Shown: one piece after another, positions 27,040 through 62,489 of the stretch | Position numbering within the stretch: position 1 is the first letter of the stretch | How the letters are laid out: every line of letters begins with the position of its first letter | Program-made: the position numbers and the translations under genes | NCBI GenBank assembly: GCA_977862235.1 | Contig: OZ374561.1 | Span: 496,001-560,000, forward strand | From: Dudresnaya verticillata | Taxonomy: Eukaryota | Direction of reading: 5' to 3' | DNA: 64,000 nt | The notes under the pieces: model-generated | Database searches by the model: none | Told to the model about the DNA's origin: nothing | What the model saw: the letters and a program-made list of their open reading frames with translations, nothing else

Positions 27040-27118
27040 GACACACGCAGGCCGAGAGTCGAACGTCTAGCCTCCTGGCCCCTGGACCCGGGCGCCTGAC
27101 CCTTCGGACATTTGTACC
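27040..27118 (-). pseudogene. Possible degenerate tRNA-like sequence or SINE head
   Basis: Minus strand A-box-like TGTCCGAAGGGTCAGG and B-box GTTCGACTC at tRNA spacing, but the stems pair poorly. Confidence 0.3.
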
Positions 27119-27766
27119 CTCTTTCTAGATTGAGGTAAAGGTATTTTAATGCCAACTTTCCAGTTAAGGCAAGACTTGTTGCCTTAGGCCTATGTACCTA
27201 CCATGATGTCGTGTCCAAGAACACCGCCTAGACAGCCTGTTTAAGGTACTACTGTAAAGGGACCATCCATATTCGATGATTCGATTCAGCAACCCTTGTC
27301 TTGGTAATGCTTGCAAAGAAGAGACCACAGATTGGCTACTGTAGACTACAATTGTACCAGTGTGTCTTCTTTATCAAGCACGACTTCTCCTCTTTTCTCC
27401 TGCGTTGGGTCTTGAGTCCGAGAGTCTTACTCGGTTTGACTCTAGTACGAAAGATGTAACATTCCGATCAGAATAATCCGAACCGCTTGTAATCATGTAA
27501 AGTGCTTCGCGTTGTACTTTCCTGTAGATTTACAGTGTGTGTTATTGCTTTCAAATAGCACCCTAGCCTTCAGTTCTAGAGACTAGAAATAAAGCAGGGC
27601 GGAAGGTATGCGCATGAGGCGCTGAGCATTACCTCAAAAGACTATAGTTGACTCTTCTTCGAGTGGACGGCCTGCTTCGTTACGTGCAAGATAGAAGGCA
27701 AGACCGAAGCGATCAGGCCTTTTTCACTCTAGTAACGCGGGACACAACAACAGCAAACGCCCTTCT

Positions 27767-28215
27767 TGAAACAAACACCTTTTTTCTCAATGGATCGATG
27801 CCCTCCGTCGCCGGCGTGAAGGCCGAGCGACGACTGATAAAGTCCTCACTGTCTGAGCGACCCGAGGCAGGGTCGCTCAGAGACCCCAAACAAAGGGGTG
27901 AAGTCCGCCTTACATGGCTGACATCCTAAAATACAATTAAAACTGGACGGTGCGACCGCAACCGCAGGAGGAGCAGATCGGCGCAGCCGATCTGGAGGGA
28001 AGTCCCAAATGTAGCCAGAAATAAAAACAAAACAGATAAGCGGCAGCGCGCAGCGCCGCTCCCGGTGCGCTCGAACCCTACCCTCGAGCGCCACCGGAAG
28101 CAAATCGGTGCTGGCGACCCCGCCAGGGCCACTTACGTCAGCCCGGCCGCGCCGGCCGGAGTACGAGTACGTATGATAAAAGAAACACGTGGGCTCACGT
28201 GGCATGACCGTTTCA
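27767..28215 (-). repeat. 3' LTR of outer element (449 bp)
   Basis: Matches 45962-46410; no mismatch found by eye. Confidence 0.97.
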
Positions 28216-28234
28216 TCCTTCCCACCTTCCCCCC
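28216..28234 (-). promoter_or_regulatory. Polypurine tract of outer element
   Basis: Minus strand GGGGGGAAGGTGGGAAGGA directly before the 3' LTR. Confidence 0.9.
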
Positions 28235-28248
28235 GATTGACGTCCGCG

Positions 28249-30425
28249 TCAATGCAAGTGCGACAGAAGGCCATGCTCGACGATGTAATCCCTGAACGCG
28301 GTGGTCAAGGTGCCATCTGTATCAACGAAATCCCTTGTAGGTTGCCACTCAGCTTCATGCTGCGGTGTGCCTTTCAGCAGTGTGAGCCATTGGAAACCGC
28401 GCCCACGCTTGCGATGGGCGAGGATACGCTCGACCTCGAACAACAACGCACCGGAGTCATCAGGGACGGGTTCAGGGCGAGGTACTACCGGTTGACTGAG
28501 CTCGGGAGGCTGTGTCTTGTGCGGGAAGGTATGCGAAACGTGCACAACGGGATGTAACCTCATATTGGAAGGTAGATCCAAGCGAAGGGCGTTCTTCCCG
28601 ACTAACTCCAGAATCTTGAATGGGCCGAAGCGCCTGCTACCCAACTTCTCTGACGATTGCGTCTTAGACACCGCATCCTTAAACAGTCCCCTGCTTATCC
28701 ACACGCTGCCACCTACTTCATACGACGACGGCGAAAGCCTTTGCGCATTGTACGCTGCGTGCCGTGCCTTAGCCAATTGATGCGCAAATCGAGCATCCTC
28801 AAGCGCACTGTTCATACGAGCGTTAAATTGGGCGACGCTCTCAATTGTCGTGTTCACTGGCAACGACATGTCCAGGGGGGCGCGAGGATTCCAGCCAAGG
28901 TCCACCTCGAACGGTGTGGCTTGTAACGCTTCACTCTTTGCGGAGTTGTAGGCAAATTCCGCCGCTGGTAGAAACGCGTCGCAATCATCCTGTCGCATGG
29001 AGCAATAGCAGCGTAGGTAGTTCTCAACCATTCGGTTCATGATCTCAGATGTCCCATCTGTCTGAGGATGATGCGTCGAAGATATTTGCAACTTGATCCC
29101 ACAGCGGGACATGAGGTGCTCCCAAAACTTGGAAGTAAACTTTGAGTCTCGGTCAGAAACGATTGCGTCAGGTAGCCCATGGTGTTTGAACACGTTAGAG
29201 AAATATGCATCGGCTACGTCCACGGCCGTGTCCGTCGTCCTGCTTGGAAGGAAGTGCACCCTTCGGGATAACCTATCTACCCACGTTGCGATGCTGTCAA
29301 ACCCTTGCTTAGTGCGGGGAAGTTTGAAGATGAAGTCGGTAGCAAGTGACCCCCATCTACGAGTAGGAACATCAAGAGGGGTAGGGATACCCAGCCTTCT
29401 CATGCGGCTGTCCTTCTTTTGCTGGCATGTTTGGCAGCCATCGACGTAACGCTTTACGTCGCGGCTCTTGTGCCGCCAATGAAAGCGTTCGAAACGGCCT
29501 AAGGTCTTGGAGAAACCGAAGTGGCCGGAAGTAGAGGCGTCATGTGCGGCGTACAGCACCTCCCTGGCGTTTTTTCGAGGAACACAAATCTTGTTCTCAT
29601 ACAACAGTCTCCCATTTGCGAACGTGAAGAGCGGGAGCAGCCTTGCTACCCGATCTTCTTGGACCTTGTCCTTCGGTAATTCTCCCTTCAATCCTTGTAC
29701 GATAGGGCCAAAGACTTGGTCCGTGTCGTACTCAAGCGTCGCTGGAAGGCCATCCATACTCGACGCAACTACATTGTTGATCGTAGTGTCCTGCTTGACA
29801 TGCGGGGCGCGGGAAAGGACGTCTCCAAGCACATGCACTCGTCCAGGCTTGAGTGTGATCTTGCTAATCCCAAATTGCGAGAACAAGTCCAAACAACGCG
29901 CCTCACGTCGATTGAGAGTGGGCTTTGTCAAAAAGTGCTTTAGAACCTGATTGTCCGTGAACACTTCGAAGGTCATACCCTCCAGGTAGCAACGAAAACG
30001 CTTGAGGAAGTACACGAGTCCCAAAAGTTCGCGCTCATTTGCAGTGTACCTTTGTTCCGCATCGGACAACTTCTTGGAGAAGAACGCAACGGCTCTTTCG
30101 GCTCCATTACAATCTAATTGAGTTAGTGTCCTTCCAACCGCTCTCTGAGATGCGTCAATGTGACAACGGAACGGCTTGCCCCAGTCCGGGGATATCAGGA
30201 TCGGGGCAGAGACCAACAGAGCTTTCAGTGTTGCGAAATACTTGTCGCAATCGGTGTCCCATTTTCCGACCCCGACGCCCTTCTTAGTCAGTGTCGTAAG
30301 CGGGGCAGCAATGCCTGAAAAGTTCTTGATGAAGCGCCTGAAGAACTGTAACAACCCAATGAAACTGCGTATTTCAGTAAGGGAGGTGGGCTTCGGCCAG
30401 TCATGGATAACTTGAACCTTCTCGG
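28249..30425 (-). pseudogene. pol: Outer pol, 3' part (RT thumb, RNase H, integrase, chromodomain), separated from its 5' part by the nested insertion
   Basis: WPKPTSLTEIRSFIG, DAS, ERELL, TDNQ (RNase H); HHCC zinc finger (HDA..SGHFG...CQTC); D,D(35)E (TDF, SDRD, TSEIMNR); GPF; chromodomain FEVERILAHRKRG...EWQP. Confidence 0.93.
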
Positions 30426-31210
30426 TGTGGTGCAACGCCAAGGGGCCTCCGAAACGGGCGCAAACGACCGGGCCAAGTGGGACGGTCAGCCCAATCAGAA
30501 AGATACATTTGGCCAACCGACGACAGTGCGGCCGAGCAGACGACGGTGAACACTGCGCAAGGAGCACACGTGTCCAACAAGTGTACACGTGTGTCACACG
30601 TGGCCACCGACGACACCTAAGCGCACCACGTGGCCCGCTGTACACGTATGATCGGTGTGATCGGATCTGGAAGCAAGTGCGGAAAGGAAAATGGATTTGG
30701 CCGCAAGTGAAATCAAGCAGGAGACAGCAGAAAAATCAAGGGAAAATCTAACTCATTTGGCCAACCACTAACGAACAAGTACTTGGTTTAGACTGGTAAG
30801 GGTACAACATTGGCCCGACACCGGTACACAAGTAGATATTATGGCCGACGGGGAGTAACCTCGGCCACTAACTGTAGCATACGTAGAATAGCTCTAGATT
30901 AGCTCTAGTGGCCGATTTTTGGGCCTACTTAGACGGCCACAGACTACGGCTCGGCCAGAATAGGTACGAAGCCGTCCCGCCAGAGGTTGGGAGTAAAGTT
31001 TTGCAACCTTTCCCCAGCTCGGCCATTTTCCACTGCTCATCCAGGATTTTGGCCGCGACTTCGTCTGCGCGCTCCCGCTCTACCACGCTTGCTACCGGCG
31101 CGCAGGTCCGTTCTACGTTCGGCCAGTTTCTACGAAATCCGACCGATCTTCCTGGTCCTTTGGGGTCTCATCCCGGCGCCGCATTCGGTGGTGCCGCTCG
31201 AGATACTACA
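30426..31210 (+). repeat. 5' LTR of inner element (785 bp)
   Basis: Matches 42921-43705; one substitution seen (C30449 vs T42944). Confidence 0.97.
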
Positions 31211-31211
31211 C

Positions 31212-31222
31212 TGGTCTCCCGA
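31212..31222 (+). promoter_or_regulatory. Primer-binding site of inner element (probably tRNA-Tyr)
   Basis: TGGTCTCCCGA 1 nt after the LTR; its complement ...GGGAGA-CCA implies G72/A73, the eukaryotic tRNA-Tyr identity elements. tRNA identity is inferred. Confidence 0.7.
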
Positions 31223-31687
31223 CCTAGAAGATCAGCTGAGGTTTCGGCCGTAATTCTCCGTTAGGAGACTCGAGTAGCTGGCCGTAGTCGACGACGGCCA
31301 GTATCTTCCTCGCTACTGTGGTGGCCAAATCCCGCAAGTTGCAGATTGCGGGTTAGTAACTACCCGGTCTCGCAAATCTGATTATCCGTCTACTTCAACC
31401 CGATTCCGTGGCCGCAGTCTAGGTCACAGGCCAGACACCCGTCGCTTGGTTCGTTCCCAGGTCGGCCGCTTTGCACACTCACTGGTTCGTTCCCAGCACA
31501 GGGAGCTTTGCACACGGCAATGTCCAACCCTTGGTATAGGGACTAGAACCCGGAATCGTCCGTTCCCACCCCTGTGTTTTGCACACGACAGTGTGGTTCC
31601 CAGGTAGGCCACTTTGCACACGTCGGCCACGGGGTATCCACGAATCGCAAGAAGTACACGGCCGATTAGTCTTCGAAGCACTTCTTC

Positions 31688-34027
31688 ATGTCTTCTTCTT
31701 CCTCACCGGCAGGCGGACAACCGCAGTCCTTACAAGACTCGGCCCCGCCTCCCTCCACGTTGGGCGCTCCCATATGCCCACCACCGGCCCCTGGCCTTTA
31801 CCCACCGTTATCGGGGCCAATACCAGCCCCTCCGGTCCCGCTAACGACTGGCCGGGGTATGCCTCCAACAGTCGGCCGAGCAGGGTCAGCTTCCACGGCC
31901 GGTGCCGTCCGCGATGAGGTACCGCCAAGGACAGCTCCTCCGATGTCGCCATGGCGCACGCCACCGGCGGCATCCGCTCCGCCAATGACTCCGCTGGCCG
32001 CTCCTGCCAATCTTCGGCCGCCTCCGGTTGACGATGATTCCCAGCCGGAACATGATGTCTGGTTGGGCCGGCAAGAGTTCTGCCAGTATAAGCGCCGTAC
32101 GGCCGATTGGCAACAAGAGGTGAAGAACCAGTTTGGCGAGATGCAAGTCAAGATGTCCACCACGGCTCTGATTAGGGACCAACAGCTTCGCCAGGAGATA
32201 CACTCCGTCATTCTCGACGGTGCACTTACGGCCATAGCCGAACGTTATGATGAGCTTCTGGAAAAGGTTGAGTCGGCCGTTTTCTCTTCCGACGGGAAGG
32301 TAAAACTCCCTGCTCCTCCTGCCCAGACAAGGTCCGAGTCCGCTCGGATGACACCGGCCAATCAACCAGTCTTGGCACCACAGGTTGGTGAACCGGTAGC
32401 AGCAGTGCAGAAGCAATTGGACAAGTTGCAAGATGAGATTACGGCCTTGTCGCATCCTGACAAGGCCCGGCCGAATATTCCAGTGGAAGGGGTACCACCG
32501 CAAGAGGGCAACACTCAAAACAGTGGTGCCGCCCCACAGCCTGCGTTAGTTGGCCCTTCGGGCCCAGCTGAGGTAGGAGAATCTTTCACGGGATATGCCG
32601 GCCATTTGGATGAAACAGGTCTTCCGATCGCAGCGATGGGGCCGATTGAACAGGGTCTAGAGCCTCTCAAGACCCTCCAGGAGCCCTTTCGGAGGGTGGT
32701 GGATTACCGGACCCACCGTCTTCTGGATACCCGGCCGACGATGACGATGGAGGATGCGCGGCGCCTGTCCCGGATGACTCGCCAAATCCGGAACTTGTTC
32801 CCGCAGATGAACCCATTTGATGGCCGACGCCCGATAGAACTTCTTTCTTTCCTTAAGGAGTTCAAGGATGCCTGTGATGGGACAAACGTTCATGAAGGGG
32901 CCGCTTTGCGTCTTCTGGCCTTCTTCACGGCCGGTGATGCGAAGAGGTTCTATTCTGGCCGGATGTCCCGTGGTATACGGTCAGTATACTCCATCTTCCC
33001 GATGAGTGGATTTTCACAAATCAGCTGGCCACACTTAGTCCATGCTTTCATCAAGCGCTACTGCACCGAAGATGTTCTGGCCGCCGCGTTTGACAAAGTG
33101 GCCAGAAGCAAACAGAAAGATACCGAGACAGAAGCGGAATTTGCCGACCGGTTAGGGGACGCGGCGCTGTCGTGCGCCGATGTCTTCTCGGAGAACACCC
33201 TGATCAACCATTATGTGAGGGGTTTACCTTCAACCACTCGTTCGGCCGTAGCTGAGAAGCTTATGCAGATGCGGCCGGAAGAGAAGGACTTCTCGACGGT
33301 GCGCCGCATCGCCATCGCCGAGGGGGAGACGCACAGAGCCTACTTGGCATCTGCACGTCCCAAAACTAGGTCGGCCAGTTCCAGAAGTGCGTTGGTCATC
33401 CCTACCCTTGCGGCCGAGCCTGCTTGGCAGGCGGAGCCCGAGGATATAGCGGCCAACTATGATGATCCGTTTGACACCATACCGGTTATGGCCATTACTC
33501 CTGGCCAGAATGGTGCTCAGCAAACACCGACAATGACACCGACCACACCGTCACCGGCTGGGTCGGTGTCCGGGGGTAATACCCCGGACCCACTCCGGAA
33601 GCCGCCAACATTAACGGCCGATGAGCTGACCAAAGTCGCTATTATGCTACGCAGTGACAAGACCAGCGCCCGTTGTTGGGGTTGTCGTGAATGGGGCCAC
33701 GATTTGTACACTTGTGTGTACTTACCAACGGCCATCAGGAACTTGGTTGCCATACGGAACTTCCGCTTCAGAGATGAGTACTCTAGATGGCACCCAGAAC
33801 AGTTTGCCGGCCGAGGAGGTCGAGGTTACCGCCCCGACCAAAGGAATGTCTCCTTTGGGGATGGAAGGGGACGCCCTCCCCCTCAGGGAATACTCCGACG
33901 GCCGCAACAATCATCTTCGAACCGTGGGAATCGGCAGGCCACGCTAGTCACTACGCAAGAACATCCCATGGATGAGGTGGTGGCCGACGTGGAGTCCGAT
34001 AATTCTTCGTTAGCATCGGGAAACTAG
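31688..34027 (+). CDS. gag: Gag of inner element (779 aa)
   Basis: Pro-rich N-terminus, capsid-like region (PFDG...FLKEF...W...F...Y...Q...ET..EF..RL), CCHC knuckle CWGCREWGHDLYTC. Confidence 0.9.
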   Translation: MSSSSSPAGGQPQSLQDSAPPPSTLGAPICPPPAPGLYPPLSGPIPAPPVPLTTGRGMPPTVGRAGSASTAGAVRDEVPPRTAPPMSPWRTPPAASAPPMTPLAAPANLRPPPVDDDSQPEHDVWLGRQEFCQYKRRTADWQQEVKNQFGEMQVKMSTTALIRDQQLRQEIHSVILDGALTAIAERYDELLEKVESAVFSSDGKVKLPAPPAQTRSESARMTPANQPVLAPQVGEPVAAVQKQLDKLQDEITALSHPDKARPNIPVEGVPPQEGNTQNSGAAPQPALVGPSGPAEVGESFTGYAGHLDETGLPIAAMGPIEQGLEPLKTLQEPFRRVVDYRTHRLLDTRPTMTMEDARRLSRMTRQIRNLFPQMNPFDGRRPIELLSFLKEFKDACDGTNVHEGAALRLLAFFTAGDAKRFYSGRMSRGIRSVYSIFPMSGFSQISWPHLVHAFIKRYCTEDVLAAAFDKVARSKQKDTETEAEFADRLGDAALSCADVFSENTLINHYVRGLPSTTRSAVAEKLMQMRPEEKDFSTVRRIAIAEGETHRAYLASARPKTRSASSRSALVIPTLAAEPAWQAEPEDIAANYDDPFDTIPVMAITPGQNGAQQTPTMTPTTPSPAGSVSGGNTPDPLRKPPTLTADELTKVAIMLRSDKTSARCWGCREWGHDLYTCVYLPTAIRNLVAIRNFRFRDEYSRWHPEQFAGRGGRGYRPDQRNVSFGDGRGRPPPQGILRRPQQSSSNRGNRQATLVTTQEHPMDEVVADVESDNSSLASGN

Positions 34028-37000
34028 CCGGGCCGAGATCTTCGGTCGTGATCCCGTTGCCCGTACACGTCCCAAAACCGGCTAGTCTCGTTTCCATTAA
34101 GTTCTTTCCTTTTAGCCACATCCGTTTTTCTTCCTTGTTAGCCATTGCATGGCGTTTGGCAACGCCAATCCAGGTTTGGTCAACCCATGATTTGACCTAT
34201 CACTGCCCATTTTCATCTAACGGTCTGGTGTGGTCACCGCCTTGGCGCGTCGGCCATACTACATCATCATCATGCACCCCCATACCAAAAGATGAGGGTT
34301 CCTTGCCAAAGAGCGGCCGCAAACTATTGACTGAAGAAAAGACAGAAGAATCCAAGTCGGCCGATGTTTCATCACAAGGTATGGTCTGCATCCTGGGTGG
34401 GGCCAACTATACCCTTTCGGGTTCTTTCGGTCTCACCATCTGTGCCTTGATACCCGGGCCCGTTGTCTTAGACACCTGCTCGGGATGGAACATCATCCGG
34501 CTGGATGCGTTGCCTCCGAATTGGAAGGACAACGCACTTGAGTTGACGTCCCCACCTCTCCTAGGGGACGCCAACCAACGGCCGATTCACTTTCGAGGGG
34601 CCGTTTCCTTGGTCGTGCGCTTAGGCCGTCATTCCTACCGAGTGCCGTTCCTCATCGCCGACCTTCGATTCGCTGTACCTATCCTACTAGGTACAGCCTT
34701 TTTGAACACGCACGTGGATAGCATACAGTGCCGTGGTCAAACCGTGCACTTAGTGCGCGGAGATATCCTTCCGCTTCTCCCTGACAGCACTTCAGTGGCT
34801 CTGGGGGCAGAGCCAACCGCTGCGAAGGGGGCCCCGCCTCCGGGTGGTAGTGGTAATTCCAATTCGGCCAAGCCTCCACGACACTACGCGGCCACTGTAC
34901 GCTTGACAAAAGGTCTGACCATACGGGCAGGTCAACAGGCTACCGTGTCTGTTCGCAGTGACGGCCGAGGATTGTGCGTGCTGGAGCCCAAACATTCTTT
35001 GAGCTTCCGGCACCATACGCGAATGGCCAATGGAGTTGCAGAAGTTCGGCCGCAGAAACCGTTCCAGGTAATGCTGGCCAACTGGGGACGCAAGGATGTA
35101 TTATTACCAAAGGGTACGGTAGTCGGCTACGCCGTCCGTCACCCTATGGCAATCCTGACGCCACACCGACAGAGCGTGGAAAATATGGCCAATGTACTTG
35201 GTCTCACCCCTCTGGTGGAGCAGGATATTAGTCAAGTAGAAGTAGAAGAGGTCGGCCAAGAAAAGGATAAGTCTTCGGAACCAGATCCACCCAGAAACGA
35301 CGCAGAAGAATGGCGGGACAAGATCAAGCTTGATCACATCCCGGACAAGAAGCAACGCAAGAAGATAATGGCCATTCTGGAGAAACACAGTGCGATGTGG
35401 GACGGTTCCTTAGGACAGATCATGGCCACCGAACACCGAATAGACTTGGAAGATGGGGCACGGCCAATAAGAGCCATGCCCTACCGACAGGGACCAGCGT
35501 TACGTGCAATCGCTGAGGCCGACATTAAGAAGCAGTTGGAGGCCGGAGTGATAGAACCATCGCACGGGGAATGGGCATCACCAATTGTCATGGTGCCCAA
35601 AAAGGATGGCACTCTTCGCTTTTGTGTTGACTACCGTCGACTCAATGCGAAGACAGTTGGCGACGCATATCCGCTCCCGCGTATGGATGACTGCATAGAT
35701 TCCCTTGGAGATGCGGCCGTGTTTTCTACCTTGGACTGTAACTCCGGTTATTGGCAGATACCAGTGGCCGAAGAAGACAAGGATAAGACGGCCTTCACTT
35801 CCCACTTGGGAACATTCCGTTATAATCGAATGCCGTTTGGATTGAAGAACGCACCGGCCACATTCCAGCGCGCACTTGATATCGTTTTGTCCGGGGTCCG
35901 ATGGCAAATATGTCTCATCTACTTGGACGATGTCATCGTCTTCTCTAAGAATGTGGAGGATCACCTCGGCCACCTGGACGAGGTACTTACCTTGTTGAAG
36001 GCGGCCGGTATTACGTTGAAGCTGAAGAAGTGTTCGTTCTTCCAGACCAAAGTAGATTACCTGGGTCACGTGGTGACTCCCGGGAAGTTGCGTATGGCCA
36101 TGCAAGGGACGAAGGCAATTCAAGAGGCCGAATTTCCAGGTACCCTTACGGAACTTCGGCCCTTCTTGGGAGCTTGCAATGTCTACCGGAGGTTTGTGGC
36201 CAAATACTCTATGATCGCCCGGCCGCTCACACGTATGCTATGCAAGGACGCAGAGCCAGACTTCGAACAGCCGACAGAGGAACAACGCCATAGTTTCGAG
36301 AAACTGAAGGCAGCCCTAGTCTCACCACCGATCTTAGCCTTACCGCGCTATGGACGGCCGTATGTCATTGAAACGGATGCCAGTGCTTATCAAATCGGGT
36401 GTGTCCTACTCCAAGAACAAGAGGACGAGACATACCACCCAGTAGGATACTGGTCTCGCTCCCTGACCTCGGCCGAGAAGAACTATTCAGCCACGGAGCG
36501 CGAGTGTTTGTCTGTGGTGTGGGCCATTACATCGTTACGGCCATATGTTGAAGGGACGAAGTTCACAGTCCGCACGGACCATGATGCACTTCGGTGGTTG
36601 ATGTCGCTCACAGATTCGTCAGGCCGCCTCACGAGATGGAGATTACGCTTGGCCGAGTTTGACTTTGTGATTGAGTATAAGCCGGGACGCAAGAATCAAG
36701 TCCCCGACGCCCTGTCCCGACTGGTAGCCCCGCTGGAGAGCGGAGACATACGGCCAATAGATGACACTGTACCTGTACTAGACGGTACCCCCTCTATTCT
36801 CACGACCACACGGGACAGGAGAAATCGAGAAGTAGCCAACGCGGCCGATAGGAGGGAACGAGAAAACGAAGACGATGTTGATGCGTGGGAAGAAGAGCAT
36901 CTGATGGCCGATTATACTGACTACGGTCGAGCAGAGGCCTTCAGTCGTGCAGAAGCAGAAGGGAAGGCATCGGAGACACTACCCGCACCATTGACACAGG

Positions 37001-38457
37001 CCGAAATTATAGAAGGGCAGAAAACCGACGACTTCTGCCAGACTATCGTAGCCACGCGTGCCGGTTTGGGGAAGTCCAAGAAACCTCTTTTCTTCGAGAG
37101 TGCCCAGGGAGTCCTCTCCCGGCGGTGCCCTACGGACGGCCGACATCAAATAGTGCTACCCGCTTCGTTACACGGCCGTATTCTTCGGTTGTGTCATCAC
37201 GCAGTTCTTGCAGGTCATCCCGGCCAGAACCGTATGTATCAGACGCTCCGTCGGACGTATTACTGGCCACACATGGCCGCTGATTGCCTTGCCACTATTC
37301 GGAACTGTGGCCAGTGCGCCAAGAATCGGATCCGCAGACTACGCCATACGTCAAGGTTGAAGCTGTTTCCGGCCAATCAACCCTTGGAGAGCGTGGCTAT
37401 GGATCTGCTTGGGCCGTTACCTCGGACGAAGAAAGGCCATGAGCATATATTAGTCATCACATGTCGTTTCTCTAAGCTGACACAGGTAGTACCACTGGCC
37501 AAAATCACTGCATACAATGTGGCCATAGCCTTTTGTACTCACTGGGTTTTCAAATATGGAGCGCCGAAAACAGTACTGACCGACAACGGGGGATAGTTTG
37601 CGGCCAAGTTCTTCCAAGCGGTTTGCCGCCAGTTACAAGTGGCCAATATATTCACGACGACATACCATCCACAGACCAATGGTCAAGTGGAGAGGTATAA
37701 TCGAACGCTGTCGGCCATGCTGCGAAGTTATGTGAACGAACACCAAACCGATTGGGACCAATATGCGGCCGCACTGACGTACGCGTACAACTGTCACGTA
37801 CATCGTTCTACGGGAACTACACCGTTTGACTTGGTGCTGAGTCGACCGCCGGGACCGTTTTCGTTAGAAGCCACGCTAAACCGGCCAAAGCCAACGGGAG
37901 CCGTCAAGGAAGCTTTCCTCCGAAGATTATCGGAAGCTGTGGACCGGGCGTCGGCCAGTCTAACTCGCACGCAGACGCGCTACAAGAAGGACTTTGACCG
38001 TTCAGTGCGAACGGGAAACAAGTCATTGGCCGCAGGGGAGTTCGTCTACTTGGACAACCCAGAAAAACAGCCGAAGAAACTGGAGCACCACGCACAAGGG
38101 CCGTATAAGATTATAAGTAACGATGGCCGAACATTCATGATAGACCGAGGTGGCCAGTTGGAACGCGTGAGCTCTGATCGAGTTGTCGCCGCTCCAAGGC
38201 CACAAGGGCAACCACTGGCTCCAGAAACTATGACCAGTGCTGCCCTTGGCAACCTCCCAGAGGGCGTAGCAGCGACGGCCGAAGAGTATGTCATCGACAA
38301 ACTCATGGACATGCGCCAAGATTCTACCGGCCATCGTTGGTTCCAAGTCAAGTGGTATGGCTATCACGGCCGAACCTGGGAGCCAGAAACTCTCCTACCG
38401 GCCACGTTAGTCTCCCGTTTCTTTGCGCGCATGGCGCGGCGAGCCACACCAACCTAG
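34018..38457 (+). pseudogene. pol: Pol of inner element (PR, dUTPase-like insert, RT, RNase H, IN, chromodomain) with one in-frame stop
   Basis: -1 frame to gag; VLDTCSG and ILLG (PR); RFCVDYRRLN, MPFGLKNAPATFQ, YLDD (RT); TDAS, ERECL, TDH (RNase H); HHCC; MDL, TDNG, VER (DDE); GPY; chromodomain EYVIDKL...VKWYGY..TWEP. TAG at 37594-37596; the frame resumes to 38457. Confidence 0.93.
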
Positions 38458-39285
38458 AGCGACGAAGGTCCGGTGTGAGGTCGGCCATCATAAGTCCAAG
38501 CAAGCGAAGTCAGGAGTTCGGCCGGGAATCGGTAAGCCAGTGTGTGTGTGAAGGAGTAGTGCGTCGGCCAGGTGGGACAGTGCTGGGTGGTAATAACATT
38601 TTGGTGAACACAGCGCGCACCAAAATACGACGGCGGTCATTTAGGGCTGGACTGACCAGGTGCATCTCGGCCAGATCGCGAATGAATGGGCCGAAATCAC
38701 TGAGGAGCACGAGCTGGGGTAAGATGAGTAATAATGATTGGATGGTAAAAACTCACCATCCGGCCCTGGAACGAGTAACGTTAATTGCAGCCAAAAACGT
38801 GCGAACACCCGACAAGACATGGCGGCGGTTCCGACCTTCACGACTTGGCCACTCGCACGGATGCTCCCTCGGAGAAAGACGGCCGAACCATTGCATCGTG
38901 AAGGAGGAACATCGGCCGAAAACGAAGACGAAGCAAATTGGCCGACCTACTGTAGTGCAACCAGAGTGCGGACGCAACCTTGAAATCGGCCAAAGGATGA
39001 AGCTGACGGCCATAAAGCAAGGAGGGGTTTTCGAGAAACCCCTAAGAAGAAGACGACCATTAACATTTAACTCAAGAATGGCCGAACATTAAGTGGAAGA
39101 GCTGTTCCGAAAACAGGGAACCTCTCACCCGATGTCGGCCGAGTACTTACTATTAATGGCCATCAACTTTTCAACATAACAACAACTATACGAGGACGGC
39201 CATGAACACACTAACTTAACATTGGCCGAAGAGGAAAGGACGCCAAGTCTCCACAAGAACTTGGCCATCCACTTGAAGCTGGCAG

Positions 39286-42200
39286 CTAACGCCGGACGTA
39301 GGGGTCAGCGTACTCGTTTGGCCGAGAAGGGTAGGGCATCGGGGACCTTGGTCCCGCTGCCCCACCAGCATCTGAAGAAGGATCGGCCGCACGTGGTAGG
39401 AAGGGACTGGCCGCAGGAAGTGACATAGAAGGAGTGCCGGCCATGCTAGAACGCGGAGCCGCCACTGGTGTGCCAGGTGCCGAAGGCCCAGCGCGAGGAG
39501 GCTCAGGTTGGTAGTCAGACGGCCGAGGAGCAACGCGACTTTGGCCAGAAGGGACATCGAAGACTTGAGCCGGAGTCGTAGGAACCGGCGTCGGTGTGGC
39601 CGCACCCGGCGTCCCAGCGAAGTTGGGCATCATCGGAACATTGGCCGACAATTGCTGGTAAGGGTGATGGTGAGACGGGAATTGGCCGAACGATGGAGCA
39701 GCCAGTGCCCTCATAGAAGCCATCTGGTGGAAGCTACGGTTGCGTTCCAAGTCCAGCAGCGTCTGCTGTTGATGGGCCGAATCGCACCAACGGTCGCGCT
39801 GACGCTTCCACTCCTCACCCTGTTCCTTCTGCATGGCCAATTTCTCTTGAACATCTTGGTTGATACCACTAAGGCGGTTGAGCTCCCGCTTGAGACCGGC
39901 CAACTCTTCTTCACGCTGCTCAATAACGGCCTTATCCGCATCAAGGCAACGTCGGTAGCGCGCGATATCGGCCAAGTCCTTCTCCCGCATCTCCCCGAAT
40001 CGGCCGATGCATTGGTCCAGCTGACGTAGGACAGTAACCAAGGGTGCTTGATTCAGATGGCCCCTCACGCTAAGCTCGGCCACAAGTCGAGGATGCGGCT
40101 GGAGAGTTTGCGGCCGAATTATCGAAGCTTCGTTGGCCACCTCCACGCCGAAGCTGCTACCATGGCGAAAGGTAATCTGCTTACCCCAGTCGAAACCGCA
40201 GTACTGCTCCTCTTTAGATCCACGACGAGAGAATAAGTGGGGACGGTGACGAACAGCATCGGCCAACTTATCGTAGAGGTCAACCACATCTGGCCAATAC
40301 ACGTCGTTGTACAAGTGCTGGTGTGCGGGGTTCACCGGCAACGAAGGAAGATCCTTGATGGCCGAAACTCTCTTCTCGATGTTCGGAAGAGGCATCCACC
40401 ACATCCGCTTGGAAGCTTGAGCTTCGTAGCGGAAGAACATAGCGGCCATAACGTGGATCTCCTTGGTCGTGATCTGCCGGAAGTACCCGCACCAATCCAC
40501 TTCTGTCGGCCGTGTGTTGTACTGATGAACGAAGTAATAGGCCGTCGGACTCAACAAGGGACACTCTCCAGCAGTCGGCCATTCAGACCAAAGGAAGGCC
40601 GGGATTGATGGGAAGGTAGTCACGGGCGGCCAGAAGCACTGTTGCCCACGACCACCGGCCAAGTAGATGTAGCAACCGGTCGTCTGATGAGCAACCCAGT
40701 CGGCCGGCGCAATCACGCGACGCAAGTCCGTGCTGGCCCACTTCGCGCTACGTACCACGGCCTGATCTGCGCGGTCCAACATCCAAGACTGCGGGAAGGC
40801 ATGCCACCAAGTCAACATGTAGGGCATTACGGAGGAACGGCCGGTAAGCGTAAGCCAAGCTTGGTGGACCAGCAGAACGTCGCCCATGTTGAGCAAGAAG
40901 GCGCGGTCGCATCCAATCTCCCATGGCACCCAATACAAGTGGCCGCCAGCGCGTGAGGAACGGAACTGGCGCCAATTATCGGCCAGGTTATCGGGACTCT
41001 CCCGAAGACGGACCATATCCAACTTCGGCGAAGTAGCCACCAACTCCGTGTAGTTGATATCAACTCTCGGAAATTTCGGCCATATGGACATGTCGGGCAA
41101 GCTCGCGTCAAGCAGCAACTCTGGGCCGTCGTGATCTTCGGTCCCCGGTGGGATATGAGACGGCCGATGAGATGCCGTCTGGTTGTGCCTGGCAGGGGCG
41201 GAGTCTTGCGGCAGAGGAGAAGAGACGGCCGGTGTAGAAATCGGCACAGAAGGGCCAAGAGTTGGACGGGCGGCTGATGAGGTCGGCCGATGAACTTCTT
41301 GACTAACGGCCGTGGCATCCACTACATCTTCACGCGGAATAAGTGCAGACTCCCTGGGGTCCGGCGTTGGAGCTGAAACGGCCGGTGAATATGTCTGAGG
41401 AGCCGGAGTGGGAGCCGCTGGGGCAACTTCCCCCTTTTGGTTCGGCCGAGATAAGTCTTCTAACTCGGGCAACTGACTGGCGAAGCGCCGCTGGTCGCCA
41501 TCACTCATCAACATGGCCGGTGGCACAGGGGTATCCGCATCGACGTCGATCACCTCGCTCCTCGAAGGAGGGGGTACCTTCTTTACGGCCGCTGTTTTCT
41601 CTTCTTCGGCCGTTCGTAACTTCTTCGATGGTGGACTGCGTGACGAGGAGGGTTTTAAGCCTGGGCCGGACCAACGAGTAGGCATGAAGGGCGAAGGAGA
41701 TGACCGCAAGCGAGGAGCTAAGCGGTGCACCGTCGGATTATCAGTGGCCTTCTCAGCTGTCGGCCGACGTGGGACAGCGATACCTGCTAAAGCACGCGCC
41801 TTCTCTCGCTCGGCCGCTGCTTCCATAGCTATACGCAAGATGGCCAAGTCCTTTGGGTTGGCCGTCTCAGCACGATCCACCTTCTTCTCATCGGCCGACT
41901 TCTCAGTGGCCGCTTCTGCCGCTTTAGCGTTGCCATCGGGTCCAACGCTGGCAGACGGGGTAGACTGTTTGGCCGAAGTTGGGAGTGGAGCCGGCGGCGC
42001 AATAGCGGTAACGGCCGAAGAAGAGCGTGTCGCCTTCTTGCTGGCCTGCTTGAGAACGGCCGCGTCAACAGGGGCAGACGATGCCCCCGCTACCACTACA
42101 GCGTCGGCCGGAGTTGCGCGCATCACCGGCAAGGGAAGAGCCGAAACCGACGGAATGTTCTTGCGGGAAGCCATATCAGAAGCTGCAGCCACCTTCGGCG

Positions 42201-42708
42201 ACGGTGGAAGAGCAGATATGGCCAACTTCATCGGCTTCGACTTGGTAACGGGAGGGAGCGACGGAGACGATGACGAAAGCAACACCGCATCGGCCGACGT
42301 CTTCTTAGTGGTCTTCTTCGCTTCTTCCAACGCGGCCAAACGACTCTGCAACTCCAAGATTTCCTTATCTTCGGCCGCACGACGTTCGCGGTAGTTGGCC
42401 AGAACCTTCTGCAGTTCTTCTGTATTGGCCAACTTCCTAGCTTCCTTGTCGGCCGTTTTCTTCTCTTGGGGCGCGGCCGTATGTTTCGATGATGAGGGCC
42501 CTGTGACTTTGGCAGGCGCACTCTTGGATGACGACGCCACCGCTTTCCGTAAGTCGGCCATTGTCGGCGGCGCCTTATTCTGCGCTGAGTCGGCCACGTT
42601 GTCGTCACTCGAAGAGTCTGATGAGATGATGCGCGGGGGCGGGGTCTTCTTCGCGCGACGGGAAGAGGGAGCGCGACGCGCGCGCTGCTTGGCCGGGCCG
42701 GTAGTCAT
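39286..42708 (-). CDS. Antisense accessory ORF of inner retrotransposon, 1140 aa, unknown function
   Basis: Uninterrupted 3.4-kb ORF from ATG 42708, between pol and the 3' LTR; protein-like architecture (basic N-terminus, coiled coil, low-complexity linker, Trp/Tyr-rich core, second coiled coil, Pro-rich tail). Confidence 0.8.
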   Translation of the reverse strand: MTTGPAKQRARRAPSSRRAKKTPPPRIISSDSSSDDNVADSAQNKAPPTMADLRKAVASSSKSAPAKVTGPSSSKHTAAPQEKKTADKEARKLANTEELQKVLANYRERRAAEDKEILELQSRLAALEEAKKTTKKTSADAVLLSSSSPSLPPVTKSKPMKLAISALPPSPKVAAASDMASRKNIPSVSALPLPVMRATPADAVVVAGASSAPVDAAVLKQASKKATRSSSAVTAIAPPAPLPTSAKQSTPSASVGPDGNAKAAEAATEKSADEKKVDRAETANPKDLAILRIAMEAAAEREKARALAGIAVPRRPTAEKATDNPTVHRLAPRLRSSPSPFMPTRWSGPGLKPSSSRSPPSKKLRTAEEEKTAAVKKVPPPSRSEVIDVDADTPVPPAMLMSDGDQRRFASQLPELEDLSRPNQKGEVAPAAPTPAPQTYSPAVSAPTPDPRESALIPREDVVDATAVSQEVHRPTSSAARPTLGPSVPISTPAVSSPLPQDSAPARHNQTASHRPSHIPPGTEDHDGPELLLDASLPDMSIWPKFPRVDINYTELVATSPKLDMVRLRESPDNLADNWRQFRSSRAGGHLYWVPWEIGCDRAFLLNMGDVLLVHQAWLTLTGRSSVMPYMLTWWHAFPQSWMLDRADQAVVRSAKWASTDLRRVIAPADWVAHQTTGCYIYLAGGRGQQCFWPPVTTFPSIPAFLWSEWPTAGECPLLSPTAYYFVHQYNTRPTEVDWCGYFRQITTKEIHVMAAMFFRYEAQASKRMWWMPLPNIEKRVSAIKDLPSLPVNPAHQHLYNDVYWPDVVDLYDKLADAVRHRPHLFSRRGSKEEQYCGFDWGKQITFRHGSSFGVEVANEASIIRPQTLQPHPRLVAELSVRGHLNQAPLVTVLRQLDQCIGRFGEMREKDLADIARYRRCLDADKAVIEQREEELAGLKRELNRLSGINQDVQEKLAMQKEQGEEWKRQRDRWCDSAHQQQTLLDLERNRSFHQMASMRALAAPSFGQFPSHHHPYQQLSANVPMMPNFAGTPGAATPTPVPTTPAQVFDVPSGQSRVAPRPSDYQPEPPRAGPSAPGTPVAAPRSSMAGTPSMSLPAASPFLPRAADPSSDAGGAAGPRSPMPYPSRPNEYADPYVRR

Positions 42709-42909
42709 CGCTACGCGACGGCCGAGAAGTAGCGTAGAAGAAGGTGGAAGGAGGTGAAGAGTAAGGAGCGCAGTCGGCCGTAGGGAGCGGGTGTGCACAG
42801 TGAAGGTGCGCGTGCTGAGGATGATGGCCGGGGGTGAGGGTGCCAGACGACGCGGCGCCCGTCTTGATATAACCGTGATCCGAGCTCGCGGCCGGGGGTC
42901 CGCGCTTGC

Positions 42910-42917
42910 GAAGGGGG
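42910..42917 (+). promoter_or_regulatory. Short polypurine tract of inner element
   Basis: GAAGGGGG ending 3 nt before the 3' LTR. Confidence 0.6.
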
Positions 42918-42920
42918 CTC

Positions 42921-43705
42921 TGTGGTGCAACGCCAAGGGGCCTTCGAAACGGGCGCAAACGACCGGGCCAAGTGGGACGGTCAGCCCAATCAGAAAGATA
43001 CATTTGGCCAACCGACGACAGTGCGGCCGAGCAGACGACGGTGAACACTGCGCAAGGAGCACACGTGTCCAACAAGTGTACACGTGTGTCACACGTGGCC
43101 ACCGACGACACCTAAGCGCACCACGTGGCCCGCTGTACACGTATGATCGGTGTGATCGGATCTGGAAGCAAGTGCGGAAAGGAAAATGGATTTGGCCGCA
43201 AGTGAAATCAAGCAGGAGACAGCAGAAAAATCAAGGGAAAATCTAACTCATTTGGCCAACCACTAACGAACAAGTACTTGGTTTAGACTGGTAAGGGTAC
43301 AACATTGGCCCGACACCGGTACACAAGTAGATATTATGGCCGACGGGGAGTAACCTCGGCCACTAACTGTAGCATACGTAGAATAGCTCTAGATTAGCTC
43401 TAGTGGCCGATTTTTGGGCCTACTTAGACGGCCACAGACTACGGCTCGGCCAGAATAGGTACGAAGCCGTCCCGCCAGAGGTTGGGAGTAAAGTTTTGCA
43501 ACCTTTCCCCAGCTCGGCCATTTTCCACTGCTCATCCAGGATTTTGGCCGCGACTTCGTCTGCGCGCTCCCGCTCTACCACGCTTGCTACCGGCGCGCAG
43601 GTCCGTTCTACGTTCGGCCAGTTTCTACGAAATCCGACCGATCTTCCTGGTCCTTTGGGGTCTCATCCCGGCGCCGCATTCGGTGGTGCCGCTCGAGATA
43701 CTACA
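42921..43705 (+). repeat. 3' LTR of inner element (785 bp)
   Basis: Direct repeat of 30426-31210, followed by TSD CTCGG. Confidence 0.97.
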
Positions 43706-45094
43706 CTCGGGATTGACCCTGATTCCATCCTTGCTAACCAACATCCCCAGGAACTCTGTCTCAGGTTGGAAGAAAGAGCACTTCTTCGGGGAGACGTAAA
43801 GTTCTTCAGACTGCAAGCGAGACAGCACTGTTTCAAGGTGCTTCAATTGTTCCTCCTTCGTGCGACTGTAGATCAACAAATCATCCATATAGACCACCAT
43901 AAAAACGTCAATACAGTCGTGGAACACCTGGTTCATAAGCGTTTGGAATGTAGCCGGAGCGTTGCACAGACCCATAGGCATGACGAGATATTCAAACTGT
44001 CCGTACTTAGTGTTGAAGGCGGTTTTCTCAACATCCTCCGGACGGACCCGTATCTGATGGAATCCCGTCTTGAGATCCAGCTTCGAGAAGTACTGTGCCC
44101 CTGCCAAACGGTCGAACATTTCATCCGGGCGTGGCAAGGGGGCGTTGTTTCGTTTTGTAAGGCGATTGAGAGCCCTGTAATCGACAACGGCCCTCAGTTT
44201 GTCCTTGTCCTTCACGAGAAATAAGGAAGCGCCGAAGGGAGATTTGCTTCTCCTGATTTTCCCTTTACGAAGTAGATCCACAACGTACTCCTTCACGGCG
44301 AGCAACTCGGCCGGAGATAGTTGGTACAACGGCCGCAAAGGCGGTTTTTCCCCCTCTTCTATCTCTATTGAGTGGTCGACGGTCCGCTTTGGGGGAAGTC
44401 CCGACGGAAGAGACTCTTGGAAAACGTCCTCAAAGCGTGACAAAAGATTCTCTAGCTGGGGGTCGTGGGACGGCTTGCGTTCTTGCTTGGATGGTGTCTT
44501 CTGAGTCACCTGGAAAACCTGGAAGTCTTGCCGGTTCCCTTTCTTCCGTAACATGGACCGAAACTTCTTTACCCCAAGCGAAGTGATAACTGGACCCTCT
44601 TCGCTGTCTTTCTCAATGGGTAAGTTGTCCTCATTAACGAAAACCGAATGCTTGGTGTAGTGAATACGGGGTGCAGTTCGCTTATGCCACGGCATACCAA
44701 GTAGAACATCATACCGACAATCTGCCACAACGAAGTTGGAACGATACTTGTGGTTCCCTAACCTCAACTCTGCATCTGTCACGAGCTGTGTGGCCTTTTC
44801 TACAGTACCTTTCTTAGAATGTGACATGACGGTGGATGTCGCTTTCACCACAAACAAGTTTGGGTTGCGAGACAGAAAGGACTTCGATACAACATTGGTG
44901 TTGCAGCCATCATCCTTCAATATGCGGACGGGAATAGAGTTTAGGAGCCCCTGAAATACGAGAAGCTCCGTAATCGGCACAGCCGATATTTCTGTAGACT
45001 TCCTTTGCCTGCGTTCCGTTCGCAGAGAGTGCACTCTTTTCTCAAGTCCTTCAGGAGTGTCTTTACTGTTCTGTGAAGGACTGACTAGTTTTCC
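43706..45094 (-). pseudogene. pol: Outer pol, 5' part (protease and most of RT), interrupted at ...GIRVNPE
   Basis: ILKDDGC and DVLLG (PR); VVDYRALN, MPMGLCNAPATFQ, YMDD (RT). Removing the insert and one TSD copy restores GIRVNPE-KVQVIHDWP in frame. Confidence 0.93.
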
Positions 45095-45915
45095 GAGTCA
45101 CCACTGTGCTCCTCGGTATCTTCGAAACCTTCCTCTTCATCGGCCTGGAAGTTATTGGCGGCAACCCCGTCGCCTTGGTGCTTCCACGGGCGGCAACCGA
45201 CTTTATGGCAAGTGAAGCACGCTTTGTTGCGATAATCTTTGAGTCGCTGACCCTCCAAGGCGCCACGTCCACGCCCACGTCCACGAACTCTGCCGCGTCC
45301 ACGTGATTCCATGTTCCCAATCTCCATGGGCGTGGGGCCTTGCGAGCTCGAACCGTCGCCTGAAGGCTGCATCTGAACGCCCCAGATTGCACTATCCACG
45401 CGCAGTGCAATCTTTGCCGCATCCTCGAATGTGGTCACGCTTGACTTCATCACTTCCAGCCTAACATCATATTTCAGACCGGCACTGAACTTATCCCACA
45501 TTTCCCCATCAGTCATACCCGGGACAGTGAGACAGACATTACGAAAGTCTGAGAGGTAGTTGGAGACTGAAGTTGTCTGCTTTAGCTTCCTAAGCTTGCC
45601 CCTGGCGCGACGGACGTGATCATCAGGCACGAACTCCGCAATTACCTTCGCCTTGAACTCGGCCCATGTAGCTGGGACGGTGTTTGCCTGAACGAGAGTG
45701 TACCACCAAACAGCAGCGGTACCAGTGAGGAAGGTAGAAGCGTAGAGAATCCTATTCCCGTCGCCAAGCTGTACTGCTGGGTTACTCAGCTGCACAAGAG
45801 CAAGATACTGCTCGACCTTGTAGATCCAGGTATTGACCACGAGATAATCCCGACGGCCATCGTAGGGTTCGGGCTTGTTGGGCTTCAGATTGATCGGACC
45901 TTGAGCTGCAGCCAT
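45085..45915 (-). CDS. gag: Gag of outer element
   Basis: KPEPYDG, LTGTAAVWW, TWAEFK, LKQTTSVSNYLSDF, PMEIG motifs typical of chromovirus-like Gag; RG repeat; knuckle-like C-terminus. First ATG 45915. Confidence 0.9.
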   Translation of the reverse strand: MAAAQGPINLKPNKPEPYDGRRDYLVVNTWIYKVEQYLALVQLSNPAVQLGDGNRILYASTFLTGTAAVWWYTLVQANTVPATWAEFKAKVIAEFVPDDHVRRARGKLRKLKQTTSVSNYLSDFRNVCLTVPGMTDGEMWDKFSAGLKYDVRLEVMKSSVTTFEDAAKIALRVDSAIWGVQMQPSGDGSSSQGPTPMEIGNMESRGRGRVRGRGRGRGALEGQRLKDYRNKACFTCHKVGCRPWKHQGDGVAANNFQADEEEGFEDTEEHSGDSEN

Positions 45916-45950
45916 TGCGGGGGCGTTATCAGTGAGATCGGTCACTGTGC

Positions 45951-45960
45951 GATGCTACCA
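45951..45960 (-). promoter_or_regulatory. Primer-binding site of outer element (initiator tRNA-Met-like)
   Basis: TGGTAGCATC 1 nt after the 5' LTR on the minus strand; TGGTAGC matches the 3' end of many eukaryotic tRNA-iMet (inferred). Confidence 0.65.
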
Positions 45961-45961
45961 C

Positions 45962-46410
45962 TGAAACAAACACCTTTTTTCTCAATGGATCGATGCCCTC
46001 CGTCGCCGGCGTGAAGGCCGAGCGACGACTGATAAAGTCCTCACTGTCTGAGCGACCCGAGGCAGGGTCGCTCAGAGACCCCAAACAAAGGGGTGAAGTC
46101 CGCCTTACATGGCTGACATCCTAAAATACAATTAAAACTGGACGGTGCGACCGCAACCGCAGGAGGAGCAGATCGGCGCAGCCGATCTGGAGGGAAGTCC
46201 CAAATGTAGCCAGAAATAAAAACAAAACAGATAAGCGGCAGCGCGCAGCGCCGCTCCCGGTGCGCTCGAACCCTACCCTCGAGCGCCACCGGAAGCAAAT
46301 CGGTGCTGGCGACCCCGCCAGGGCCACTTACGTCAGCCCGGCCGCGCCGGCCGGAGTACGAGTACGTATGATAAAAGAAACACGTGGGCTCACGTGGCAT
46401 GACCGTTTCA
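45962..46410 (-). repeat. 5' LTR of outer element (449 bp)
   Basis: Direct repeat of 27767-28215, flanked by TSD CTTCT. Confidence 0.97.
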
Positions 46411-62009: not shown

Positions 62010-62489
62010 TTGCTTCTTCGGAACGTCGGTTTGGAGGGTAGGTCAAAACTAACAAGAGACGCTCTGTACAATACTCTGAGTCTCTAAGTTAACATCAGAT
62101 GGGAGGAATAGTGCACAACTTGTGTCTAGGATTTCCAGAATCTAACTCAATAAGTAGAGAACTACAGAAGTAGGCAGTGACTCAGTCAACCTAGCATTAT
62201 TGTCCTCAGCTTGGAATACGGGGCTGATTTGGATCTTGACTCAATTGTCCTGAACCTTGGCTGCGGGTCTCCCCCCAAGAGTGTTGCACTGCAGTCCAAA
62301 AAAAAGAAAACTGGGCCACTTCATCATGTGTTTGTTACCTAGCGGTCAGGAGCGTAGATGAGTTGAGAAATGTGGCCCCTTGCAAGGCACTTTTTTGTGC
62401 GTAGCGACCTATTTGTCCTGTGACGCCGCATTGCTTCGGGTATGGATGAGTATGCGAATTGAAAGAGCACCTTCTACTATCAGCCGTCT

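Follow-up and report, generated by a model that had tools for sequence, protein, structure and literature searches.

The closest described counterpart of the sequence reported here is the VANDAL/VANC system of Arabidopsis, in which Mutator-like DNA transposons carry short motifs and an accessory anti-silencing gene. VANC motifs are reported to be non-coding tandem repeats in one orientation (PMC5735166), and the VANC protein dimerises via a coiled coil (PMC13547354). The locus to be compared lies in a 64,000-nt stretch of Dudresnaya verticillata DNA (contig OZ374561.1, positions 496,001 to 560,000), referred to as the window. It is a 13,280-bp chromodomain Ty3/gypsy retrotransposon with long terminal repeats (LTRs), termed the inner element, inserted into a second Ty3/gypsy element, the outer element. 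The inner element carries the palindrome YGGCCR throughout its length, and this whole-element code in a single retrotransposon copy is real, strong and unexplained.

The analogy with VANDAL/VANC, drawn by an earlier note made from the sequence alone, holds in part. Both elements have an accessory gene and an enriched short motif restricted to one family (an excess is seen in 0/152 relatives of the inner element), with specificity that would come from density. In both cases the core of the accessory protein is conserved, other regions vary, and a coiled coil is present, in the inner element as a prediction. The class of element differs, as do motif type and arrangement: the VANDAL motif is described as a 9-bp oriented sequence in non-coding tandem repeats, whereas the motif here is a 6-bp palindrome, occurring singly and mostly in coding DNA, that arose from point substitutions. 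No sequence similarity of the accessory protein to VANC or to PMD was found. Short words that serve as self marks are also familiar from bacterial chromosomes, where DNA uptake sequences, Chi and HIP1 are dense in coding DNA even at a cost to protein. To our knowledge, all of these lie far below one site per 70 bp, and none is confined to one mobile element. A literature search of titles and abstract openings returned no motif-saturated retrotransposon.

The inner element contains 257 GGCC and 195 YGGCCR sites (14.7 per kb), and the remaining 50.7 kb of the window contains 194 and 54, respectively. Motif density steps up and down at the LTR ends. The GGCC counts of the earlier note are reproduced: 18 in the 785-bp LTR, 19 in 35401-36600, 26 in 39181-40380, and 5 in 28801-30000 of the outer pol. 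Its statements that most GGCC sites are YGGCCR (182/239, or 76%) and that the sites are evenly spread (66% of GGCC gaps measure 20-70 bp) also stand, one LTR being counted in each case. Sites are found in non-coding DNA and in open reading frames (ORFs) of both strands, as had been described, and all three codon phases are used. The features concerned, in window coordinates, are as follows.

30421 to 30425, + strand: target-site duplication (TSD) CTCGG, 5 bp; second copy at 43706-43710
30426 to 31210, + strand: 5' LTR, 785 bp, TG...CA, with a lone mismatch to the 3' LTR at 30449; 18 GGCC and 13 YGGCCR
31211 to 31687, + strand: 5' leader, 8 YGGCCR against 0.6 expected; it opens with what we take to be a primer-binding-site-like TGG, 1 nt past the 5' LTR
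31688 to 34027, + strand: gag, 779 aa, Retrotrans_gag with a CCHC zinc knuckle; 30 YGGCCR
34018 to 34024, + strand: slippery heptamer GGGAAAC, directly upstream of the gag stop
34003 to 38457, + strand: pol frame, with a protease-like region, reverse transcriptase (RT), RNase H, integrase and a C-terminal chromodomain
38458 to 39285, no strand: non-coding spacer flanked by pol and the antisense ORF, which converge on it; 16 YGGCCR against 1.0 expected, with all gaps at least 20 bp
39286 to 42708, - strand: antisense ORF, 1140 aa; 59 YGGCCR
42910 to 42917, + strand: short run ahead of the 3' LTR, presumably polypurine-tract-like
42921 to 43705, + strand: 3' LTR, 785 bp
30510 to 43620, no strand: the 195 dispersed YGGCCR palindromes, mean gap 68 bp
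27767 to 46410, - strand: outer Ty3/gypsy element, with identical 449-bp LTRs and TSD CTTCT; its pol is split by the inner element

A codon-shuffle check, as proposed in the earlier note, was run by permuting synonymous codons within each ORF (500 shuffles), so that composition, codons and protein are kept. The YGGCCR excess persists in all three ORFs: 30 sites against 9.3 in gag (z 8.5), 37 against 12.0 (z 9.3) and 13 against 4.0 (z 5.7) in two stretches of pol that together hold 50 sites within 34330-38454, and 59 against 15.8 in the antisense ORF (z 13.0). These four stretches account for 139 of the 182 sites, and the observed count was reached by 0/500 shuffles in gag, pol and the antisense ORF. 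In non-coding DNA, dinucleotide shuffles give 1.1 sites for the 13 observed in the LTR, 0.6 for the 8 of the 5' leader and 1.0 for the 16 of the spacer. Three pieces of the outer element and eight host genes, used as controls, show no excess (z -1.7 to 0.9; host genes alone, -1.7 to 0.7). Positions at which the protein permits a YGGCCR are used at 58-69% in the inner element and at 0-20% in nine control regions.

The bias had been described as nucleotide-level rather than protein-driven. This description requires one amendment: the bias is not wholly nucleotide-level, as residue pairs able to spell the motif are also enriched in the element proteins (z 2.9-3.3, against 0.19±0.94 in 132 stored proteins, mostly Pol homologues). 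Conserved Pol columns are kept at motif codons, with 1 deviation in 33. Selection for YGGCCR acts on synonymous and non-coding positions and on some residues of the proteins. Recoding of the element from end to end by selection is thereby supported; it may serve the self-identity role that the earlier note attached to it. An artefactual origin, from base composition, codon bias, tandem repeats or the assembly, should also be considered, as the GC content of the inner element (0.56) is above that of much of the window. However the shuffles preserve composition, codons and proteins, neither CCGG nor GCGC is enriched in the element, YGGCCR forms no tandem arrays in it, and LTRs, TSD and long ORFs with real homologues are all present. 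The chance that an artefact accounts for the pattern is negligible.

The confinement of the motif to the inner element extends beyond the window. Relatives were gathered from 80 metagenome loci, 78 genome-bin loci and further contigs. Pol-matching DNA of 1200 nt or more was present in 154 of the 164 sequences (152 relatives plus the inner and outer elements), and the other 10 were dropped; the rows of the relatives are not independent, since some families contribute more than one copy. In none of the 152 relatives is YGGCCR, or any of 48 palindrome classes, in excess at 10^-4. The outer element, the host genes and the related pol regions all lack the enrichment, as the earlier note had suggested for the window. 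The nearest relatives (RT identity 67-72%) retain 1/35, 0/23, 0/24 and 0/20 aligned sites, and because almost none is retained, the YGGCCR sites were gained on the branch of the inner element. These nearest relatives lie in seaweed-associated genome bins. G001 is a bacterial bin with many eukaryotic retrotransposon contigs (L147-L153, L156-L158, L225-L246) and 38 Pol matches, i.e., contamination, and many other bins also contain such contigs. A search for dense YGGCCR in five contaminated genome bins gave no cluster among the matches listed. A scan of viral contigs with a single RT protein gave no relative (0/37 stretches), and with an RT alignment it gave only distant records, L085-L146, which were left out of the analysis.

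The sites themselves follow a simple grammar. Their consensus is symmetric, W-Y-GGCC-R-W, and they fall into four classes, 66 CGGCCG, 50 CGGCCA, 34 TGGCCG and 32 TGGCCA, with flanks that are independent of each other (p 0.58); enrichment over the synonymous null is 4.7x, 3.2x, 2.9x and 2.4x, respectively. Dyad symmetry is present, yet there is no bonus for perfect palindromes. The match is graded: with motif codons fixed, sites with one wrong flank are at 1.9x, those with two wrong flanks at 0.8x, and core mismatches at 0.8-1.06x. RGGCCY cores are not enriched in the inner element.

Spacing is regular, with a coefficient of variation of 0.70 against 0.91 for random placement, and only 4 of 181 gaps are shorter than 18 bp, where random placement gives 31 (one LTR counted). 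Permitted sites at most 17 bp from a used site are filled in 6 of 36 cases and those farther away in 133 of 183, so the regular spacing is not set by the positions that the protein allows; adjacent pairs closer than 18 bp number 3, against 18.5±3.0 in a protein-preserving null. The 4 close pairs in the element are as many as neutrality would give (2.3-5.5), so that a further site less than about 18 bp away seems to be useless, not harmful, as it would be under a protein footprint. The spacing shows no 10-11 bp period of the nucleosome type, and the flanks of neighbouring sites are not complementary to each other. Selection, element specificity, dyad symmetry, flank independence and exclusion by distance are thus observed properties of these sites. 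The strand symmetry, the independent flanks and the exclusion over about 18 bp fit a protein that would read duplex DNA.

These same properties bear on a functionless origin by mutation or repair bias while the element replicates, such as an RT error pattern or very-short-patch repair acting on methylated GGCC. Under a plain synonymous shuffle, words one letter away from GGCC are depleted (0.56-0.95x), as such a bias would have it. However transversion neighbours are as depleted as transition ones (CGCC 0.56x, AGCC 0.64x, GACC 0.85x), and the footprint of methylase repair, a selective loss of GGCT/AGCC and GGTC/GACC, is not seen, GACC being near expectation. Most of the neighbour depletion vanishes with motif codons fixed, and the single deviation among the 33 conserved Pol columns shows them to be respected. 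Mutation bias also cannot produce a dependence on the distance to the next site. It is largely refuted by the spacing test, and its probability is very low.

The explanation favoured here, at somewhat short of an even chance, is that YGGCCR sites are binding sites in duplex DNA for a dimeric reader encoded by the element, with an anti-silencing role like that of VANC, although the reader would not be a VANC. The reader would be the product of the antisense ORF, dimerising via its coiled coil. Bound at intervals of about 70 bp along the integrated copy, with a footprint near 18 bp, it would form a coat that would keep the copy out of host silencing or mark the whole element as self. We infer the reader protein, its footprint, its identity with the antisense product and the benefit of anti-silencing or self-marking from the grammar and layout of the element. 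Sites would build up by single substitutions, since each added non-overlapping site would add bound protein. Because 6-bp sites are common in the host (about 1 per kb), density, not presence, would give specificity. The antisense product is the likeliest reader because it is the sole extra gene and has basic clusters resembling a nuclear localisation signal (NLS) as well as a coiled coil. Polycomb repressive complex 2 (PRC2) is reported to silence transposable elements in C. merolae (10.1101/2022.10.24.513474). A second report describes the PMD modules MAIL1/MAIN and MAIL2, in which a protein whose domain is related to transposons recognises a motif, a palindrome in the case of MAIL2, and counteracts Polycomb silencing (10.1101/2024.09.27.615353). 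These, as described there, are host genes with single promoter motifs, and the antisense protein has no PMD sequence match. The PMD-motif modules and the coiled-coil dimer of VANC are precedents for the steps proposed for the reader.

The antisense protein has a basic, low-complexity N-terminus with NLS-like K/R clusters, a Trp-rich conserved core at about aa 537-773 (positions 41100-40390), a predicted coiled coil at about aa 900-990 and a low-complexity tail. Homologues of the core are found in P0121 (E 4.5e-11), P0122 (E 8.7e-8) and P0142, and in three contigs of bin G001 (E 9e-18 to 1e-7); a coiled coil is also predicted downstream of the core in most of them. These sequence comparisons place the antisense ORF in a genuine protein family that lacks annotation, with a predicted globular core and coiled coil. 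The G001 homologue contigs stop short of pol, and their membership in an element is presumed. A first search for core homologues found none among 3600 candidates of 627-1995 aa, and the core was found in 0/461 cases in the viral-contig scan and 0/10 in genome contigs. Two structure predictions were of low confidence (predicted local distance difference test, pLDDT, 32.7 and 39.0), and a fold search with them returned generic helical matches alone (best Z 6.2); because the models are poor, the search is uninformative on the antisense fold.

Antisense ORFs downstream of pol are found in the same layout in the relatives L150, L153 and L157. These form a second group of ORFs 3' of pol (L150:7213-10233, L153:6695-8119, L157:10134-12692, and L246), with a core, a coiled coil and a basic tail. 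The profile comparison of the L150, L157 and L246 ORFs with the antisense family of the inner element gives E 0.06 (local) and 0.007 (global), and the four ORFs are possibly remote homologues of that of the inner element. The plant Ty3/gypsy elements Retand, Grande and RIRE2 are also described as having a long ORF in antisense orientation, placed between pol and the 3' LTR; its function is called obscure, with DNA binding suspected (PMC11963269). By that account these elements are non-chromoviruses with TRP28 (PF04195) and tandem arrays, whereas a chromodomain is present in the inner element, and both a TRP28 match and tandem arrays are absent; the accessible portion of the report mentions no motif spread over the whole of those elements.

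Several observations weigh against the favoured explanation. The antisense protein is without a Pfam match (none for the core up to E 10) and without a PDB sequence match for the core, and neither kind of search revealed a recognisable DNA-binding domain in it. The earlier note proposed to test whether the motif co-occurs with the antisense ORF; L228 and L229, which carry the closest homologues of the antisense protein, have no dispersed motif (YGGCCR 2.2-2.3 per kb) and no dyad above 10^-5. The antisense family thus does not generally travel with a sequence tag. YGGCCR cores are enclosed in 5-bp stems 6 times, against 15.4 in flank-swapped controls (z -2.6; shifted controls, z -0.5 to 0.5), and stem avoidance around the cores is not predicted by a reader of duplex DNA. 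On the genomic strand RGGCCR (31) outnumbers YGGCCY (17), at p 0.06. Selection for base pairing across the lineage of the relatives, set out below, points to RNA. The motif analysis rests on a single copy of the inner element.

The reader may instead be supplied by the host, as a chromatin protein, transcription factor or cytosine methyltransferase specific for YGGCCR, whose mark the element would recruit at high density to appear active or gain protection. Such a host factor would leave the same DNA-level signatures as the favoured reader. It would also account for the antisense-ORF homologues that lack the motif, and YGGCCR is a known bacterial restriction-modification site (EaeI/CfrI). However the eight host genes in the window and the intergenic DNA have no excess, and the motif is ignored by the outer element, although it shares the nucleus. 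An 18-bp exclusion would not be expected of a methylase, which modifies its site and departs. A host reader is decidedly unlikely.

A functional role at the RNA level receives support from the relatives. Excess 4-bp stems at synonymous sites (stem z >3) are displayed by 56 of 87 near relatives (RT identity at least 47%) and 7 of 65 distant ones. The five nearest relatives have stems at 1.4-2.0x and the inner element at 0.97x, with no local-stem excess at any loop size from 1 to 12 (all z at most 1.3). Folding gain over a synonymous-shuffle null reaches 42% in L148, 36% in L152 and 38% in L228, and the selection for base pairing in the relatives is stronger on the coding strand. In an RT tree of 103 of 162 rows (identity at least 44%, at least 300 aa), the inner element falls inside hairpin-rich rows, in a clade of eight rows with a support of 98 in the SH-like approximate likelihood ratio test (SH-aLRT) and inner forks of 84-90. 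Because the inner element nests among hairpin-rich relatives, its gain of the motif probably went along with a loss of hairpins. Some clades have neither hairpins nor a strong motif, so neither is obligatory.

Local RNA-structure selection at synonymous sites is very strong in L148, L152, L147, L149, L228 and many of L001-L080. CTCN-tetraloop-N'GAG hairpins number 25 in L150 and 25 in L153, with about 3 expected, and L158 has 17 CACN-pentaloop-N'GTG hairpins; the fixed-stem dispersed hairpins of L150, L153, L158 and L157 resemble dispersed packaging signals. The corresponding spaced palindromes (CTC-N6-GAG, 25 against 3; CAC-N7-GTG, 17 against 3) were considered as DNA tags and rejected: the inner pair covaries (14/25, 18/25 and 15/17), so they are read as hairpins. 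A search of the clades without hairpins for motifs that might stand in for them gave only a mild CAAG/CCAG excess of at most 1.8x; in the clade of L009, L011, L018, L006 and L050, CAAG and CCAG/CTGG are at about 1.5-1.8x over synonymous shuffles.

Because the relatives have been recoded for RNA hairpins, which the earlier note overlooked, a reading at the RNA level stays alive. Under it, about 190 self-complementary patches would pair any-to-any, within one or between two packaged RNAs, and compact or condense the genome in place of the hairpins; the short duplexes so formed may in turn be read by a protein. As an RNA tetramer, GGCC forms a very stable duplex, on which a 3' purine stacks well. 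In 450-nt folds of the inner element 102 of 174 sites pair with another GGCC, partly by construction, and sites avoid hairpin loops. Kissing loops were dismissed, as the sites are not located in hairpin loops. The hairpin excess of the near relatives and its probable loss in the inner element, together with the gains of 36-42% in L152 and L148, favour this reading, and GGCC patches are reported to cross-link synthetic DNA condensates (PMC12058984).

Features of the sites in the inner element do not agree with pairing, however. There is no wobble bias: CGGCCA, with its C-A mismatch, occurs 50 times and TGGCCG, the class that G-U pairing on the genomic RNA would favour, 34 times, at equal enrichment. 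The sites have not converged on a single perfect palindrome, cores of the form RGGCCY show no enrichment, and the flanks of different sites do not covary. Pairs 10-17 nt apart, which would be the strongest hairpins, are at the neutral background, neither favoured nor purged. Measured against synonymous shuffles in windows of 120-900 nt, folding gains 7-13% over gag and pol and 1-5% over the antisense ORF, partly from the motif itself. The gain is small and equal on both strands (7.6% against 8.9% in pol, 3.3% against 3.9% in the antisense ORF, 900-nt windows); a gain of just 3-13% with no strand preference weighs against the RNA reading. RNA pairing is the main rival and, on balance, somewhat unlikely as the explanation.

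Two described systems may be compared with the RNA features. Ordered RNA structure on a genome scale (GORS) constrains synonymous sites over the whole genome, as seen in the inner element, although it is described as sequence-agnostic (PMC7642675), whereas the inner element carries a fixed word and no local-stem excess. GORS fits the relatives instead; the folding percentages given above are not directly comparable with GORS figures. Dispersed packaging signals of RNA viruses likewise constrain synonymous sites over the whole genome, and the dispersed hairpins of the relatives are like them, as far as that report is available (PMC6281560). A wider reading would join the two sets of observations: a seaweed Ty3 lineage would write a self tag over its whole genome, mostly as RNA hairpins and here as a six-base DNA word close to saturation and with the spacing of a footprint, and the tag would be read by the antisense family. 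This possibility is on the doubtful side.

The assignment of the inner element to Ty3/gypsy follows from its TG...CA LTRs, the 5-bp TSD, gag, the order RT-RNase H-integrase and the C-terminal chromodomain. Pfam matches within its 13,280 bp are PF03732, PF00078, PF17917, PF17921 and PF00385; the chromodomain match (PF00385) has E 2.4e-5 and 24.6 bits, where the cut-off is 25.1. The protease region, without a Pfam match, is assigned by position. Pol lies in the -1 frame relative to gag, and the frameshift presumably occurs at GGGAAAC. The integrase core of pol is broken by a single in-frame stop at 37594-37596. As the LTRs differ at 1 base in the inner and 0 in the outer element, both insertions are recent, and they are nested. 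An Rfam scan of 27000-47000 gave 0 matches.

The eukaryotic genes of the window are intron-poor, at about 52% GC, and together with the seaweed-associated bins of the nearest relatives they point to a host that is probably a red seaweed. In host DNA outside 30426-43705, GATC, GGATCC, GAATTC, GGGCCC and CGATCG are depleted (z -3 to -6, with counts from both strands). A RAD51-like gene, whose long N-terminus is of low complexity, lies between two oppositely oriented WS/DGAT paralogues at 15452-16990 (-) and 21991-23730 (+). At 50247-50280 an inverted repeat of 34 bp without mismatch, (GGC)n(GCC)n, lies in an Ala-run of a gene matching GAF and bHLH-MYC_N. An LSD1-like amine oxidase with ARID and SWIRM (59406-62009) is followed by a 444-aa ORF (62463-63797) without a Pfam match.

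Strong RNA-structure selection over whole retrotransposon genomes, as seen in the relatives, was not described in the literature searched. The inner element bears on the role of antisense accessory genes in Ty3/gypsy elements and on possible sequence-specific counter-silencing in retrotransposons. It supplies a candidate for the protein and, in YGGCCR, an exact candidate for its site; the predicted footprint is about 18 bp, and negative controls are available in nature. If RNA pairing is the explanation, a genome would have swapped local hairpins for about 190 interchangeable sticky patches. If YGGCCR is a self tag read by the antisense protein, the inner element would be the first retrotransposon to be coated from end to end by a sequence-specific protein of its own, and it would offer a natural experiment in the joint change of reader and tag.

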